From Candidatus Micrarchaeota archaeon (GTDB lineage Archaea; B1Sed10-29; WALL01; WAMD01): DNA of 14,769 nucleotides. The stretch is taken from contig CAZZDL010000020.1 of the NCBI GenBank assembly GCA_964652335.1, positions 1 through 14,769 on the forward strand, written 5' to 3'. How positions within the stretch are numbered: the stretch's first letter is position 1; each line of letters opens with the position of its first letter. A program made the position numbers and the translations under genes. The notes beneath the pieces are model-generated. The model made no database searches. It saw nothing but the letters and a program-made list of their open reading frames with translations, and was not told the DNA's origin. This document shows, one piece after another, positions 1 through 5,423 of this stretch.

Positions 1-557
1 CTAACCAAATCCCTAGCATCCTTGAACTTTGCCTTCTTTCTTAGACCAATCCTTTTCAAATAATTTCTAACTATCTTCATATCGCATAAAGAGACTAGAC
101 TATCAAAAGCATTTTCATATACGGGCTCGTTGTAGTACACAAAATCAACTAGAGTTTTCTCTGGAGTGGAAACAGGGATATAGAAATCCCCATACCTCTT
201 ACTCTCATATCCAAACATGCCCTTGGGCTTCATATACCTTATCAGGACATTCTTGTCTAGCACCTGCCTCACACCTAGTCTAACCCTCCTGCTGGTTATG
301 ACCACTGGAACAGTCTCTTGTTCCCAAACCTCATAAAAGGAAAGTGCAAACTCTAGCCCTAGGTAAGACGGTCTGAATGCGTAAACTGCTAGGACTGGAT
401 CGTCATGGAATGAATAAATACCTTTTCCTAATTTGTGTATTTTGCCAGAAGAAAGATAGTTGTGGATAATCAGCTTTGCATAGCTTTTACCAACTAGCTT
501 TTCCACATCCTTAAAACTAAAGACGGGCCAGTCCCTAAATTTTTCAAGCACTACCAT
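1..557 (-). CDS. Type IV toxin-antitoxin AbiEi-family antitoxin (wHTH transcriptional regulator), 3'-partial at window edge
   Basis: Not in the ORF track; translated by hand from ATG at 557, which overlaps the toxin stop. Reads MVVLEKFRDWPVFSFKDVEKLVGKSYAKLIIHNYLSSGKIHKLGKGIYSF...SYLGLEFALSFYEVWEQ...MFGYE...IPVSTPEKTLVDFVYY and stays open to base 1. The N-terminal wHTH ending in 'KLGKGIY', plus 'SYLGLEFAL' and 'STPEKTLVD', are AbiEi hallmarks. It is coupled to an AbiEii gene. Confidence 0.88.
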   Translation of the reverse strand, partial: MVVLEKFRDWPVFSFKDVEKLVGKSYAKLIIHNYLSSGKIHKLGKGIYSFHDDPVLAVYAFRPSYLGLEFALSFYEVWEQETVPVVITSRRVRLGVRQVLDKNVLIRYMKPKGMFGYESKRYGDFYIPVSTPEKTLVDFVYYNEPVYENAFDSLVSLCDMKIVRNYLKRIGLRKKAKFKDARDLV

Positions 558-1189
558 CTCATTATCGTCCTCCTCATCTGATCATAGGTTGGGGCTAATC
601 CATCAATGACTATTGTCTTTAAGATGTCCATGTCCTTTGGCTTCTCAATCCCAGCCTTTAGGGCAGCTACTGCTTGACGAATACGCCTCTTGTCACATAA
701 TGGATAAAGAGTTATCAGATCATACAAATCCCTTACCAAGTGTCTAGACAAAAATGCATCTACCTTCTCTTTGAATATCTCTTCAGGGGGTAGGACATAT
801 ACAGATACAAATGTACCATCCACCCTTTCATAGCTTCCAATAATGCCTTCCTTCTCCTGGTTCGAAAACTCAAGCTTCACATGGATACCATTTCTTTCTA
901 TATCAGAAAATATTGTGTTGCCTGTGGACTTGAATTTCCTCAATTGCATGTCAAACGGTTGTATAAATGAATCAAGCCTTTCCTTTATGCCCTTGCTGTC
1001 CTTCCATACATAATAAAAGTCTAGGTCCTCAGAGAACCTTCTACCTCCATAAACCCTCCAAATAGCGGTTCCTCCATGAAACACAGCCGGGCTAGGGAGT
1101 GAAACTACAAAGTCCACTAGGACATCCTGCATCCTAGCCATTTCCAGCTGTCTTCTTCTCTTGATTCTTTTTTCTATTGGAATTTTCAT
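551..1189 (-). CDS. AbiEii/AbiGii-family nucleotidyltransferase toxin (type IV TA)
   Basis: 212 aa. Carries 'VFHGGTAIWRVYGGRRFSEDLDF' (GGT...RFSEDLD) and C-terminal 'EKVDAFLSR...RDLYDL', typical of DUF1814/AbiEii. Confidence 0.92.
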   Translation of the reverse strand: MKIPIEKRIKRRRQLEMARMQDVLVDFVVSLPSPAVFHGGTAIWRVYGGRRFSEDLDFYYVWKDSKGIKERLDSFIQPFDMQLRKFKSTGNTIFSDIERNGIHVKLEFSNQEKEGIIGSYERVDGTFVSVYVLPPEEIFKEKVDAFLSRHLVRDLYDLITLYPLCDKRRIRQAVAALKAGIEKPKDMDILKTIVIDGLAPTYDQMRRTIMRW

Positions 1190-1390: not shown

Positions 1391-2602
1391 ATGCATTTAA
1401 CAAAAGAAGAAGAATCAATGCTTGCAGGAGAGTACGGAGCTGGCATTCAAAAGGCAATGGAGATAATTGTTGCCTTAGGCAAGATATATGGGGCAGAGAG
1501 ATTGGTGCCAGTAACTAGTGTACAGGTAGCTGGGGTTTCGTACAAGAACCTAGGAGATGCTGGGATAGAGTTCCTAGAAGAATGGGCAAACGCTGGAGGA
1601 AGAGTAAGAGTCCCTACTACTTTAAATCCAGCAGGAATGGACCTAGACGACTGGGAGAAAATAGGCTTTGAAAAGGACTTTGCAGAAAAGCAGCTAGCAG
1701 TTATACATGCATTTGAGAAAATGGGGATTCCACCGACATGTACATGCACCCCATATCTAGCAGGGAATATCCCTAAATTTGGAGACCATATTGCATGGGC
1801 AGAATCGTCTGCTGTTAGCTTTGCAAACAGTGTAATCGGTGCAAGGACAAACAGGGAAGGTGGGCCAAGCGCAATCGCTGCTGCCATAACTGGAAGGACA
1901 GCCGAATATGGATATCACTTAGATGAAAACAGATTGGCCGAGTATAAGATAATCGTTGAAGCAGATATTAATGACTATGCAGACTTTGGATTTTTAGGAT
2001 ATTGGACAGGGAAACATGTTAGAAGCTCTGTTCCATACTTCACCAGCCTAAAGGCAAACTCTGATCAGCTGAAGCAATTGGGAGCTGCAGCCGCCGCAAG
2101 TGGTGCAATAGCCTTGTATCATGTGGAAGGAGTAACTCCAGAGGCTAGGATCCATGGGGAGAATATACTAAAAGATGATTATCAAACAATCACATTTGGA
2201 GAAGGAGAGAAGAAGGAGGTTATTGAAGCAATAGGGAAAGGTGAGACAGAGATTGACCTAGTTGTATTCGGATGTCCACATGCAAGCTTAGAAGAATTGA
2301 GAGAGATCGCTGGATTAGTGAAAGGCAAGCAATTGAAAGCTGAGCTCTGGATAACCACGTCCAAGCCAGTAAAGGAAATAGCCAAAAGGATGGGACTAGA
2401 CAAGATAATTGAGAATGCGGGTGGAAAGATTGTCGCAGACATGTGTGCAGTTGTATCTCCAATAAAGGGATTTGGGTTCAAGAGCATAGCTGTGAATTCT
2501 GGAAAATACGCCTGGTACCTAGCTAACCAAGGGTTTGCAATTAGAATGGGATCAACAAAGAAATGTGTGGAGGCAGCTATAACTGGAAGGTGGAAAGAAT
2601 GA
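1391..2602 (+). CDS. Phosphomevalonate dehydratase large subunit (aconitase X type II catalytic subunit, DUF521)
   Basis: Fe-S cysteine motifs 'TCTCTPY', 'GCPH' and 'DMCAVVSP'; also 'AGVSYKNLGDAG', 'TTLNPAG' and 'WAESSAVSFANSVIGARTNRE'. Start moved to 1391 (MHLTKEEE) because GGTGA sits at 1382-1386. Adjacent to the DUF126 subunit, IPK and fni. Confidence 0.9.
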   Translation: MHLTKEEESMLAGEYGAGIQKAMEIIVALGKIYGAERLVPVTSVQVAGVSYKNLGDAGIEFLEEWANAGGRVRVPTTLNPAGMDLDDWEKIGFEKDFAEKQLAVIHAFEKMGIPPTCTCTPYLAGNIPKFGDHIAWAESSAVSFANSVIGARTNREGGPSAIAAAITGRTAEYGYHLDENRLAEYKIIVEADINDYADFGFLGYWTGKHVRSSVPYFTSLKANSDQLKQLGAAAAASGAIALYHVEGVTPEARIHGENILKDDYQTITFGEGEKKEVIEAIGKGETEIDLVVFGCPHASLEELREIAGLVKGKQLKAELWITTSKPVKEIAKRMGLDKIIENAGGKIVADMCAVVSPIKGFGFKSIAVNSGKYAWYLANQGFAIRMGSTKKCVEAAITGRWKE

Positions 2603-2991
2603 TACTAGAGGGAAGAGTCATAAAGGAAGGAAATGTTGAGGGAGAAGCGCTTGTGTCTCCTGAGCCTATTGGCTTTTATGGAAATGTGGATCCAGACACA
2701 GGCATAATAATAGAAAAGGGACACCCACTAGAAGGAAAATCAATAGCTGGAAAAATACTCGTATTCCCGACAGGGAAGGGATCAACCGTTGGGAGCTATA
2801 CAATGTACAGACTAAAGAAAAATGGAAAGGCCCCTCTGGGAATAATAGTAAAAGAAAGCGAACCCATAATTGCTGTGGGGGCAATAATATCGGATATTCC
2901 AATGGTTGACAAGGTAGACATATCCAAGATAAAAACAGGTATGAAGGTGAAAATAGATGGAAGGACTGTCAAAATCAAAGATAGTGATTAA
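2599..2991 (+). CDS. Phosphomevalonate dehydratase small subunit (aconitase X swiveling domain, DUF126)
   Basis: Motifs 'GNVDPDTGIIIEKGHPLEGKSIAGKILVFP' and 'GKGSTVGSY'. ATGA start/stop overlap with the large subunit at 2599-2602. Confidence 0.92.
   Translation: MILEGRVIKEGNVEGEALVSPEPIGFYGNVDPDTGIIIEKGHPLEGKSIAGKILVFPTGKGSTVGSYTMYRLKKNGKAPLGIIVKESEPIIAVGAIISDIPMVDKVDISKIKTGMKVKIDGRTVKIKDSD
2957..2982 (+). repeat. 26-bp direct repeat, left copy
   Basis: ATGGAAGGACTGTCAAAATCAAAGAT, identical to 3473-3498. Preceded by GGTGA (2946-2950) and TAG. Confidence 0.97.
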
Positions 2992-3025
2992 AAATAACAA
3001 TATATAAATCTAGTATGGTGGTAAC

Positions 3026-3226
3026 ATGGAAACTGCATACGTGCCAATACCTAAAGAGGTATTCTCTGACCTGGTAAAAAGATTTGGGGAACTGGAAGAA
3101 ATAATGGAAACGCTTGAGATAATGGCTGACAAAGCTATGATGGACGACATAAAAAAGAGTGAAGAAGACATTAAAGCTGGGAGAGTAACCAAACTGAAAG
3201 ACATCAACAAACTTGGGGAGGAATAA
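3026..3226 (+). CDS. Type II antitoxin (archaeal RelB/Phd-YefM-like)
   Basis: 66 aa and acidic. 'ETLEIMAD..MMDDIKKSEEDIKAGRV' resembles the toxin-binding C-terminus of RelB/YefM antitoxins. GGTGG RBS at 3017-3021, TATATAAA at 3001-3008, directly upstream of a RelE-like gene. Confidence 0.8.
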   Translation: METAYVPIPKEVFSDLVKRFGELEEIMETLEIMADKAMMDDIKKSEEDIKAGRVTKLKDINKLGEE

Positions 3227-3228
3227 AA

Positions 3229-3471
3229 TTGGATATCTACTACACTAAGACCTTCCTTAAAGCATATAATAAGTTAGATAATGAAGCAAGAGAAAAGGTA
3301 AAAAAGGCAATACAAAAGTTACAAGAGGGACACAAAGGAAAACCACTACGATACGATCTCAGCGGTTATTTTTCCATAAGAATATCCAATATACGAGTCA
3401 TATATAAAGAAATTAATAACGGGCTAATGCTCATTACTTGCGGATTGAGAAAAAATGTTTACGGTGACTAG
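3229..3471 (+). CDS. relE: RelE/ParE-family toxin (RelE-like mRNA interferase)
   Basis: 80 aa and basic. Motifs 'YTKTFLKAYNKL', 'GKPLRYDLSGYFSIRISNIRVIY' and C-terminal 'GLRKNVY'. TTG start after a GGGGAGG RBS. Confidence 0.88.
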   Translation: MDIYYTKTFLKAYNKLDNEAREKVKKAIQKLQEGHKGKPLRYDLSGYFSIRISNIRVIYKEINNGLMLITCGLRKNVYGD

Positions 3472-3472
3472 A

Positions 3473-3498
3473 ATGGAAGGACTGTCAAAATCAAAGAT
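3473..3498 (+). repeat. 26-bp direct repeat, right copy
   Basis: Identical to 2957-2982. Begins 1 nt after the relE stop, at an ATG in the IPK frame, with GGTGA at 3463-3467. Confidence 0.97.
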
Positions 3499-4315
3499 GG
3501 GAGTCAAGAATGATAACCTAACCGTGATAAAGATTGGTGGGAGCGTAATAACAAGGAAAGAGGATGATAAACCTGAGGTGAACAGGGAAAACCTTGACAG
3601 GGTAGCAAAGGAGATAGGAAATGCATTGTCTGAAAAGCCAAATGGAAGGCTCATAATAGTCCATGGGGCTGGACCATTTGGGCATATATACGCAAAGAAA
3701 TATGATTTGCACCTAGGGCTAAAATCAGAAAAGCAGGTGAAGGGTATAGGGATAACCCACAGGTGGATGGAATGGCTAAACCATGAAGTTGTAAAGACTC
3801 TCCAAGAGAACGGAGTAAAGGCAATGCCGTTCCAACCAAGTGCTGGTGGAATTCTCTGCAATGGAAAATTAGTCCAATTCCCATTAAACGTCGTGGAAAA
3901 ATTCCTTGACCTTGGATTAGTCATTGTCTCCCATGGGGACGTACTACTTGATAACTCAAGAGGTATAGGAATACTATCTGGAGATCATTTGGCGCCGTAT
4001 CTAGCCCATAATCTAAGAGCCAAAAGACTTATCCTTGGCACTGACGTAGACGGAGTATTCACTGCCGATCCAAAGAGGAATCCAGATGCAAAGCTGGTTA
4101 AGGAGATAACTCCAGACAATCTGACAGGGCTAGAAATCGGGGGTTCAAATTCCACAGATGTCACTGGAGGGATGGCCAGAAAGATAGCAGAGCTTGTGGA
4201 CCTAGCAAAGGAAGGGCTTGAGTCAGAGATAATAAACATAACAAAGCCAGGAGTTTTATACAAAGCTCTTATGGGTGAAACAGGGCTTGGTACAATAATC
4301 AGACCTAAACAATAG
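3473..4315 (+). CDS. ipk: Isopentenyl phosphate kinase (amino-acid kinase family)
   Basis: Motifs 'KIGGSVIT', 'VHGAGPFGH' with the IPK signature His, 'SGD' and 'DVTGGMARK'; directly upstream of fni. Start 3473 chosen for the GGTGA RBS; ATG 3497 is an alternative. Confidence 0.92.
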   Translation: MEGLSKSKMGVKNDNLTVIKIGGSVITRKEDDKPEVNRENLDRVAKEIGNALSEKPNGRLIIVHGAGPFGHIYAKKYDLHLGLKSEKQVKGIGITHRWMEWLNHEVVKTLQENGVKAMPFQPSAGGILCNGKLVQFPLNVVEKFLDLGLVIVSHGDVLLDNSRGIGILSGDHLAPYLAHNLRAKRLILGTDVDGVFTADPKRNPDAKLVKEITPDNLTGLEIGGSNSTDVTGGMARKIAELVDLAKEGLESEIINITKPGVLYKALMGETGLGTIIRPKQ

Positions 4316-4355: not shown

Positions 4356-5423
4356 ATGTCTTGGACAACCGGAAAGAGAAAGCTTGATCATCTTCATATA
4401 GCTGCCAGGGAAAGGGTTGAATATGGAGACACCTGGTTTGATGATGTAATTCTTGTTCATGAGAGTGTCCCTGAGCTTGATCTTAATGATATAAACACAA
4501 AGACTAAGTTTTTAGGTAAAGAGCTAAAATACCCGTTCATGATTGTTGGGATGACAGGCGGTGTTGAAGAAGCAAAGGAAATAAATAGAGACATAGCTAA
4601 AGTGGCGGAAAACTTGGGAATAGGGTTCGGTCTCGGAAGCCAAAGGGCAATGCTTGAACGGGCAGAAACATGGGAAAGCTACTACGTCAGAGAAGAAGCT
4701 CCAAAAACACTAGTCATAGGGAATATAGGTCTAGCTCAGCTAGGAGACTATCCAAAGGACAAGATAAAGAAAGCCATGAAAAAAATAGGAGCAGACGCGA
4801 TGGCTGTTCACATGAATCCTGCACAAGAAGCTGTACAGCCTGAAGGAGACTGGGATTTCAAAGATAAACTTCCATTGCTTAAAGAATTAGCAGGAGAGAT
4901 ACCTGTTATAGCAAAGGAAGTTGGGAATGGTGTTTGTAGGGAAATAGCCATAAAGCTTAGGCACGCCGGAGTAAAGGCAGTAGATATCGGTGGATTTGGC
5001 GGAACCAATTGGGTGCTAATAGAAGCAATGAGGCATGGTGAAAAAACGCCATTCATAAACTGGGGAATACCAACAGCAGCCAGTGTGCTAGAAGTCGCTC
5101 CTATACTCCCAGCTATAGCCACCGGTGGAATAAGGAATGGTATGGAGGCTGCAAAGGCAATAGCACTAGGTGCCAGTCTAGTAGGAATTGGCCTGCCAGC
5201 GCTTAGATGGTACCTAGCTGGTGGGAAGGAGCTTTTGGAGACAAACCTCATAAGGATGTTGCACGAGTTTAAGATTGCGATGTTCTTAACCGGTTCATCC
5301 AATGTAAGAGAATTGAAGGAAACAAACCTAGTGATAACAGGAAAGCTTAGGGAATGGTGCCTAGCCAGAGGGATAGATATAAAACATTACGCAAATAGGG
5401 AGGCTGGAAAGGCTATATTTTAA
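4356..5423 (+). CDS. fni: Type 2 isopentenyl-diphosphate Delta-isomerase (FMN-dependent)
   Basis: Motifs 'RKLDH', 'MTGG', 'GSQR', 'HMNPAQEAVQPEGD', 'KEVGNG', 'GGTNW' and 'WGIPT'. GGTGA RBS at 4347-4351 before ATG 4356; TTTAAATA at 4320-4327. Confidence 0.96.
   Translation: MSWTTGKRKLDHLHIAARERVEYGDTWFDDVILVHESVPELDLNDINTKTKFLGKELKYPFMIVGMTGGVEEAKEINRDIAKVAENLGIGFGLGSQRAMLERAETWESYYVREEAPKTLVIGNIGLAQLGDYPKDKIKKAMKKIGADAMAVHMNPAQEAVQPEGDWDFKDKLPLLKELAGEIPVIAKEVGNGVCREIAIKLRHAGVKAVDIGGFGGTNWVLIEAMRHGEKTPFINWGIPTAASVLEVAPILPAIATGGIRNGMEAAKAIALGASLVGIGLPALRWYLAGGKELLETNLIRMLHEFKIAMFLTGSSNVRELKETNLVITGKLREWCLARGIDIKHYANREAGKAIF

Follow-up and report, generated by a model that had tools for sequence, protein, structure and literature searches.

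A RelBE-type cassette between direct repeats in an archaeal mevalonate operon: an old insertion whose repeat copies match within genomes

Results

The RelBE-type cassette and its flanking repeats

The window analyzed here, one entire 14.8-kb contig (CAZZDL010000020.1, 14,769 nt) from a Candidatus Micrarchaeota archaeon (GCA_964652335.1), carries a mevalonate operon in which a putative RelBE-type toxin-antitoxin (TA) pair lies between two copies of a 26-bp direct repeat. The archaeon is of DPANN type and comes from vent metagenomes; the assembly of its genome (G000) amounts to 821 kb (0.82 Mb) and is 96.8% complete. It was compared with a genome of the same genus (G001; 345 kb examined, 61% complete), one of the same family (G003; 704 kb examined) and a fourth family genome (G002; five contigs plus the searched loci), completeness across the family assemblies being 61-97%; phylum comparisons comprised 31 genomes. 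The gene order in the operon is aconitase X (AcnX) large subunit, AcnX small subunit, 66-aa open reading frame (ORF), 80-aa ParE/RelE-like ORF, isopentenyl phosphate kinase (IPK) and type 2 isopentenyl-diphosphate isomerase (IDI), with the following features:

1394..2602, plus strand: AcnX large subunit (Pfam AcnX 1e-158)
2599..2991, plus strand: AcnX small (swivel) subunit, acnX-small (Pfam AcnX_swivel_put 3e-36; NCBIfam PRK03955 above cut-off)
2946..2956, plus strand: degenerate 5' part of the left copy, including GGTGA at 2946-2950 (sequence, alignment)
2957..2982, plus strand: left direct repeat, 26 bp, identical to the right copy
2983..3025, plus strand: cassette upstream region, a putative promoter
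2983-3000, plus strand: degenerate 3' extension of the left repeat (alignment)
3001-3008, plus strand: TATA-like box within the cassette upstream region
3026..3226, plus strand: 66-aa putative RelB-type antitoxin (placed ahead of the toxin gene, likewise in G001 and G003)
3229..3471, plus strand: RelE/ParE-superfamily toxin, 80 aa, TTG start (Pfam ParE-like 4e-6, slightly below the curated cut-off)
3463..3467, plus strand: GGTGA ribosome-binding-like site for IPK (position shared with G001 and G003)
3473..4315, plus strand: IPK (NCBIfam IPPK_Arch 7e-77, above cut-off)
3473..3498, plus strand: right direct repeat, 26 bp, forming the first IPK codons (homologous ATG in G001, G002 and G003)
3494..3508, plus strand: segment around a 15-nt insertion at the IPK 5' end, specific to G000 (alignment)
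3499..3513, plus strand: spare small-subunit end (GSQE-stop) after the right copy (similar end kept in G001 and G003)
4356..5423, plus strand: type 2 IDI (TIGR02151 6e-110, above cut-off)

The two repeat copies are identical at 26/26 positions with a period of 516 and, as the initial annotation had it, bracket only the TA region, namely the upstream region (which also holds a GGTGG ribosome-binding-like site) and the 66-aa and 80-aa ORFs. The perfect match ends at 26 bp and cannot be extended by one base on either side; the assembly holds these two copies and nothing else within five mismatches, the next best match having six. GGTGA precedes each copy (2946-2950 and 3463-3467), and 10/18 further bases match 3' of the 26-mer, giving a total degenerate duplication of 44 nt at 82%, longer than the roughly 36 bp initially estimated. 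The left copy encodes the end of the AcnX small subunit (...GRTVKIKD), whose final two residues and stop are supplied by the start of the cassette. Read in the +1 frame, the right copy gives the IPK start MEGLSKSK, and the small-subunit frame continues through it to the GSQE-stop (TGA 3511-3513); both frames had been read correctly, and the earlier hand counts of GC (18/60, 15/60 and 26/60) are exact. Over whole genes only the toxin is AT-rich (GC 0.33, against 0.39 for the antitoxin gene and 0.40 for the genome). No terminal inverted repeat (TIR) was found inside the repeats of this insert. An IPK start at 3497 is less likely, having no ribosome site, and the ATG at 3473 is common to relatives; a 5-nt duplication near 3512-3523 was rejected as a frameshift of the IPK start, since relatives share the N-D-L frame.

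Single contigs cross both 26-bp copies in a possible source run and in an independent run, and a Joint Genome Institute (JGI) contig that does so shows 6 differences in 6840 nt and 0 inside the repeat. Because both copies are spanned by independent contigs, the repeat is not an assembly join, and the artefact that the initial annotation had allowed for is ruled out. A metagenome scan with IPK returned only a near-identical strain and one distant locus.

The toxin family profile matches YoeB and RelE3 structures at 5e-5. The 66-aa ORF has no Pfam or NCBIfam family match; its profile matches a solved 'Antitoxin RelB' weakly (E=0.033), among unrelated matches that score similarly. A RelE/ParE-fold toxin 3' of a small antitoxin is the layout of a type II TA pair, with which the Pfam/NCBIfam scores, below curated cut-offs, are consistent. 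The final codons of the toxin overlap the GGTGA site of IPK. In the accessible text of a study of the archaeal mevalonate pathway, AcnX pairs of this type act as phosphomevalonate dehydratase (PMC10040528), and from family and context we infer that the AcnX large subunit is the large subunit of that enzyme.

The same junction in relatives

Of 30 IPK loci, 14 have acnX-small upstream; 11 of these, all from other families, have the two genes adjacent without an insert, and three are filled. The earlier reading that a TA pair was inserted with duplication of a gene junction and left both neighbors intact is supported. The filled loci, those of G000, G001 and G003, hold the same RelBE-type pair in the same order at the same acnX-small/IPK junction, and in each of them the last conserved Tyr codon of the toxin directly precedes the right junction. 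G002 has a different gene upstream of IPK and no acnX-small match. The locus is carried by these three genomes only, all kin, and among the 31 phylum genomes the only toxin homologues >39% are those of G001 and G003 (62% and 59%); a toxin scan of 185,579 species genomes returned the same two and one 36% match.

The three genomes are far apart. Four-fold sites in their host genes differ by 59-74% (between G000 and G001, 34/52 in acnX-small and 66/102 in IPK), and identity is 39-55% for the antitoxins and 58-59% for the toxins. Since deeply diverged relatives are filled at the same junction, the insertion is not recent: the recent event proposed in the initial annotation is ruled out by filled sites in G001 and G003 at 39-59% protein identity with near-saturated synonymous sites. 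The perfect repeat is most readily read as dating the last homogenization, not the insertion. That annotation had also reconstructed an empty site with a single 26-mer and a 41-nt gene overlap, which was not seen: acnX-small/IPK overlaps in outgroups are a few bases, no genome with a single copy of the 26-mer was found, and the 11 empty outgroup loci are too distant to display it. At one locus of another family (L020, genome G010), the approximately 80 nt between acnX-small and IPK contain a second, unused small-subunit-like end that reaches across the IPK start and resembles what a duplicated junction would leave after loss of its insert.

Repeat copies compared within and between genomes

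The repeat pair of G001 is 26 bp perfect (33 with one mismatch) with a period of 538, and that of G003 is 14 bp perfect (21 with two mismatches) with a period of 517. Over the 22 nt from the IPK ATG, the left and right copies show 0, 0 and 5 differences in G000, G001 and G003, respectively, and the same 22 nt differ between genomes at 6-10 positions (6/22 for G000 versus G001). Copies within a genome are thus closer to one another than orthologous copies are, which is the criterion for concerted evolution; the same was found at a second site, where an MNT-HEPN pair occupies the same place in G000 and G003 and each genome has its own perfect 20-22-bp pair, with 3 differences between the two genomes. 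Given the local divergence of 20-27%, the chance that two independent 26-mers remain identical is 3e-4 to 3e-3 each. Because translation of the right copy, in another frame, yields an IPK extension of low conservation (N-termini read MEGLSKS, MGSLLKS, MEIPLKP and MDITPKQ), protein selection does not account for the identity of the copies. Taken together, these comparisons lead us to regard the two copies at acnX-small/IPK as a case of concerted evolution.

The copies of G000 have a perfect core with decayed margins on both sides, and those of G003 are partly decayed (5/22), a combination that would fit patchy, episodic conversion. The segment at 3494-3508 agrees at 12/15 bases with sequence lying immediately within the left end of the G001 cassette, which hints at a left-to-right transfer; such a match was reached in 40/20000 shuffles, in a test picked after the match was seen. 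Elsewhere in G000, contig C1 bears three identical 22-nt copies (50236 on the minus strand, 57078 and 57688); two of them fall inside thiI or at its end, the third lies 7 kb off in inverse orientation, and together they show that short copies can be identical in this genome where clean excision is impossible.

Repeat-flanked cassettes in the genome and family

An ORF-pair scan combined with Pfam yielded 10 type II TA pairs in G000, seven of which lie between direct repeats (19, 22, 22, 26, 51 and 78 bp perfect; 52 bp with 3 mismatches), a genome-wide pattern that the initial annotation had missed. Both AAA_14-DUF4143 ATPases of the genome are likewise flanked (33 and 58 bp), as is one further ORF of no assigned family (26 bp). 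Among 2111 gene intervals, 15 distinct repeat pairs score at least 19 and ten of them are these cassettes; the other five were discarded as paralogue ends, tRNA-linked repeats or coding repeats. Repeats left out of the counts were tRNA-linked on C9, C26, C28 and C1 83131 and coding-motif on C10 and C21. Nine of 1500 random same-size windows of G000 also score at least 19, and five of the nine are the cassettes themselves. The repeats of the ten cassettes have no sequence in common, most being host TATA boxes, promoters, ribosome sites or gene ends, and TIR scores are 4-8 in all ten inserts. The further G000 cassettes (loci L093-L100; TA, ATPase or other ORF) are at:

C11 805/1303
C2 18402/18871
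C14 4244/4784
C22 7890/8632
C23 102/617 and 580/1086
C13 13991/15244
C8 9463/10746
C17 11197/12294

On C23, two tandem RelBE pairs are separated by repeat copies. G003 has a set of its own: four single ATPase cassettes (34-58 bp, one nested), RelBE pairs, MNT-HEPN, and an array (L141:2074-7254) in which a PIN-type TA, an ATPase and other small pairs are split by four copies of one repeat. Its locus L092:395-11937 strings ATPase cassettes together, and in one of these a 58-bp and a 28-bp repeat pair are nested. Empty orthologous sites were found for the G000 cassettes on C2, C14 and C23 and for G003 L145 and one L092 cassette. At these sites the lone host copy agrees at 30/44 positions for C23, 34/58 for L092 and 13-14/22 for L145, and weakly for C2 and C14. 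Because close TA homologues occupy different sites in relatives (63-74% for RelBE, 80-85% for a PIN pair), new insertions happen in the family.

One AAA_14-DUF4143 group takes a palindromic repeat motif along to different sites (L099, G000 C8 9463-9520; L092:3944-3994; L034 near 17950 in G001), so not every repeat is a pure copy of the target; the motif is possibly an operator carried by the ATPase element. These ATPases match PADLOC PDC-S01, a candidate defense family.

Beyond the family, in genomes that are kin to one another and whose cassette counts are descriptive, scores of at least 20 occur in other families of the phylum at 5/22 HicA, 1/13 RelE and 6/23 ATPase scorable loci, some of them degenerate, and 0/27 IPK control loci score at least 14. 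In other archaeal lineages, 0/5 ParE and 1/11 ATPase loci are flanked, together with, in narrower windows, 1/10 RelE and 0/10 HicA loci (best 20 of 70). In a distant archaeon with a 2-Mb genome (G059), a RelE pair lies between perfect 24-bp repeats (L284:170-714), and the repeat-flanked TA pattern is therefore not confined to the phylum.

Other repeats of G000 were of different kinds. Hairpin-like repeats, some common to several contigs, lie near tRNA-like genes:

C9 28416/30247
C26 64/4015
C1 83131/85013
C23 8502/9152
C28 2692/3413

On C39 (L101; 719-959 and 2176-2416), an ATPase_2/DUF234 gene and its upstream neighbor have an identical 241-bp 3' end; with no intergenic bracket, this repeat was discarded as a cassette.

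Mobility genes, circles and empty alleles

No mobility gene was found in or beside the RelBE insert, and its repeat is not a multicopy element. The initial annotation had considered tyrosine or serine recombinases acting in trans; Phage_integrase (PF00589) and Resolvase (PF00239) have no match in any of the four family genomes, with controls positive in 14/14 and 12/14, and its statement that recombinase and TIR are lacking is borne out by these searches and the TIR scores. Cas1, IS110, Y1 transposase and reverse transcriptase (RT) likewise have no match in 4/4 family genomes, where positive controls worked, and DDE_Tnp_1 has none in G000, the remaining transposase families not having been searched. 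With no recombinase match in these assemblies (61-97% complete) and repeats unrelated between sites, the cassette does not classify as a tyrosine- or serine-recombinase element or an integron cassette; with no TIR and no match to Cas1 or a tested transposase family, it does not classify as an insertion sequence, a miniature inverted-repeat transposable element or a casposon either.

RadA-family genes are present, and MutS_V and NucS were not found in 4/4 family genomes. Ku occurs in 3/31 phylum genomes, exactly G000, G001 and G003. The contigs of four runs contain no empty junction, joint or 516-bp circle, of the kind that the initial annotation had in mind, though contigs lose rare variants. 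In run X3, a contig with 8 differences in 557 nt begins at 3474, on the second base of the right copy, which would suit a mixed empty and filled population; X3 has no upstream cover and was not counted. None of 2.9 million viral contigs contains the 26-mer, and a viral search with the toxin gave one partial 25-residue match.

Three observations stand apart from the cassette. The lack of a tyrosine recombinase match means that no XerA was found in G000 (96.8% complete) or its three family relatives. On C14 of G000 (L095:466-2700), a MazF-type TA cassette is inserted between genes for Ku and a LigD-type ligase, which 3/31 phylum genomes were found to carry. Within the window, an AbiEi/AbiEii type IV TA pair (3-1189, minus strand) lies just upstream of the mevalonate operon and runs off the contig end.

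Discussion

The repeat-flanked cassette is real, was dated wrongly by the initial annotation and is more general than it supposed. We put the odds at about even (a probability near 0.5) that one old insertion duplicated a long target and that its repeats were then homogenized episodically and in place by host recombination while toxin addiction removed deletions. The site is shared across deep divergence, the copies are identical within G000 and within G001, and the genome-wide pattern, the empty sites at other cassettes and the lack of matches to the tested mobility families are likewise observed. A single origin, the enzyme involved, in-place exchange and addiction are what we infer. On this account a single entry of the RelBE-type pair at acnX-small/IPK, in a family ancestor, would have copied the junction (gene end, ribosome site, next gene start) to both sides, so that both host genes survived. 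Lying about 0.5 kb apart, the copies would be re-matched now and then by homology-directed exchange, either gene conversion or unequal exchange followed by contraction, with RadA or replication slippage as the agent. Exchanges that delete the cassette would probably be purged by toxin addiction, and the filled state would persist while the repeat tracks the host sequence.

Several points weigh against this account. Three of the ten TA pairs of G000 have no repeat, and in the 345 kb examined G001 has the acnX-small/IPK cassette only. Twenty-six base pairs are short for RadA-type exchange, and for the first step, the making of a repeat at a new site, our searches found no enzyme. Residue 73 of the toxin (window 3445-3447) is Leu in G000 and His, within a C-terminal CGHRK motif, in G001 and G003, so addiction may be weak here. 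Synonymous sites are near-saturated in host and TA genes alike, with which vertical descent of the TA pair is compatible but by which it is not proven. In-place conversion and excision with re-entry, finally, would leave nearly the same record and are inseparable by sequence alone.

The last point bears on the main alternative, to which we give some weight, in which host recombination excises a 516-bp circle with one repeat copy, leaving a working empty operon, and circles re-enter empty sites by a single crossover in the same or other cells. Successive rounds would preserve the likeness of the two copies, and a new site would arise when a circle now and then enters at the wrong place. A plausible small-subunit end with a stop lies behind the right copy in all three genomes, although this stop could stem from codon constraint in IPK; the tandem cassettes split by repeat copies (two RelBE pairs on C23, four copies in L141), the close homologues at differing sites (63-74% for RelBE, 80-85% for the PIN pair) and the segment at 3494-3508, which could be a remnant of imprecise excision, also point this way. 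Against it, contigs of the four runs, in which rare forms are invisible, hold no joint, empty junction or circle, the 26-mer is not among the 2.9 million viral contigs, and no family genome has an empty acnX-small/IPK site, G002 having no acnX-small match. Related TA pairs may instead have inserted fairly recently into the same junction in each lineage, duplicating the target as it then stood; repeat ends do differ among the three genomes, and new duplicating insertions are clear in the family, with empty orthologous sites for at least five cassettes. We nonetheless find this improbable: the toxin lineage is seen at no other site, the right junction falls directly after the last conserved Tyr codon in all three genomes, and, other cassettes being without site preference, three entries at one junction and two at the MNT-HEPN site would be unlikely.

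Somewhat less probable again is that selection for alike action, through a shared promoter, ribosome or protein-binding site, keeps the copies identical without DNA exchange. Many of the repeats are promoters or ribosome sites, and the palindromic repeat of one ATPase group recurs with homologues at other sites, but each acnX-small/IPK copy is translated in its own frame as part of a different protein, the two have changes in common where positions are free to vary, the N-terminal extension of IPK shows no conservation, and G003 tolerates mismatches. The initial annotation raised a recent one-off integration at an attachment-like core by a trans-acting recombinase. Its perfect 26-bp repeat is in the length range given for archaeal att sites in the accessible text of one survey (PMC6563490), and at 96.8% completeness a recombinase gene could be missing from the assembly; this version is nevertheless very unlikely, being largely refuted by the filled orthologous sites in deeply diverged relatives. 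The ten cassettes with unrelated repeats and the absence of Phage_integrase, Resolvase, Cas1, IS110, Y1 and RT matches in 4/4 family genomes and of DDE_Tnp_1 in G000 also speak against it. We give equally little credence to AAA_14-DUF4143 ATPases or Ku-LigD as trans-acting machinery that would make staggered breaks and capture DNA with long duplications. The ATPases occur in 4/4 family genomes, often between repeats themselves, and Ku is restricted to G000, G001 and G003 among the 31 phylum genomes, yet the ATPases match a candidate defense family and most have no repeats, and flanked cassettes also occur in genomes with no Ku match (G004, G009, G012, G013 and G014), which leaves Ku-LigD unsupported as a requirement.

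To our knowledge, how chromosomal TA pairs move without a transposase or integrase is an open question. Here, most TA pairs of one 0.82-Mb genome leave a readable footprint and relatives supply both filled and empty sites; with no dedicated mobility enzyme found, the question becomes testable. Perfect flanking repeats are routinely taken to mean a recent insertion, and that this is wrong at two sites here is a practical warning. More speculatively, this family of small genomes may harbor a recombinase-free cassette system, in which TA pairs and defense-type ATPases enter with duplication of 20-80 bp of a host promoter or gene junction and then pass between integrated, sub-kilobase-circle and empty states via host recombination alone. 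Were this so, each cassette would have an attachment site of its own that co-evolves with it and endures through divergence at genus and family level, and chromosomal TA modules would have a general route for moving and persisting without mobility genes. We found no report of a genome-wide archaeal class of repeat-flanked TA or ATPase cassettes, nor of concerted evolution of such flanking repeats, in the literature searched, which lacked most subscription papers.

Comparison with known systems

Gene conversion drives concerted evolution of nearby prokaryotic repeats such as tufA/tufB and rRNA operons. As in those cases, the copies described here match within a genome and diverge between genomes, with a perfect core and decayed margins; unlike them, the tracts are only 20-60 bp, the two copies fall in different reading frames, and what lies between them is an addiction module that can be deleted. 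The cassettes resemble integron gene cassettes, archaeal ones included, in being small, in carrying TA pairs, in sometimes standing in tandem and in relying on a neighboring promoter, but here there is no integrase match, and the repeats are site-specific host sequence with no shared attC family. Archaeal elements bounded by attL/attR (SSV-type and cryptic integrated elements) have direct repeats of similar length at gene ends, but as described in the accessible text they are at least 2.6 kb and carry an integrase (PMC6563490), which was not found here or in the family. A Microcystis module also places a ParE-like TA pair between two identical direct repeats; the available description is of one locus, with 152-bp intergenic repeats that contain an internal inverted repeat (PMC7935541).

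The closest parallel concerns restriction-modification (RM) genes.

Insertion with long target duplication was reportedly first described by Nobusato et al. in 2000. For bacterial RM genes it has been documented by Furuta, Abe and Kobayashi (2010; PMC2853133), whose screen, in the accessible text, gives 179 repeat-flanked cases from 4132 RM systems with no archaeal case retained, and whose Table 3 has repeats of 25-64 bp and longer. The comparisons there are mostly within species or between close species, the word 'concerted' occurs 0 times in that text, and DNA breakage by RM is suggested as the likely cause (PMC2853133). The same line of work, as far as its accessible text goes, recounts amplification between such repeats and a proposed, unproven cycle of release and reinfection (PMC2853133; PMC3874152). 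Duplications of >30 bp were used in the first screen and of >20 bp in the second, according to that text (PMC2853133); the 26-bp perfect core of the RelBE locus passes 20 bp, only its degenerate 44 nt (82%) passes 30, and its cargo is a RelBE-type pair in place of an R and M gene pair. Like the RM insertions, the cassettes are addiction-type genes between long, variable, target-copy repeats found nowhere else in the genome; they lack a mobility gene, and for several of them relatives have the empty site. Unlike them, the cargo consists of RNase-type TA pairs and ATPases, not DNA-cutting genes, the host is a DPANN archaeon, and the frequency is 7/10 TA pairs versus 179 flanked cases from 4132 RM systems. 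The locus works like an insertion with long target duplication, yet it is no member of the RM class. With it, a mode of insertion described for bacterial RM genes is extended to TA and ATPase cassettes of archaea, and the view that DNA cutting by the cargo is required is weakened.

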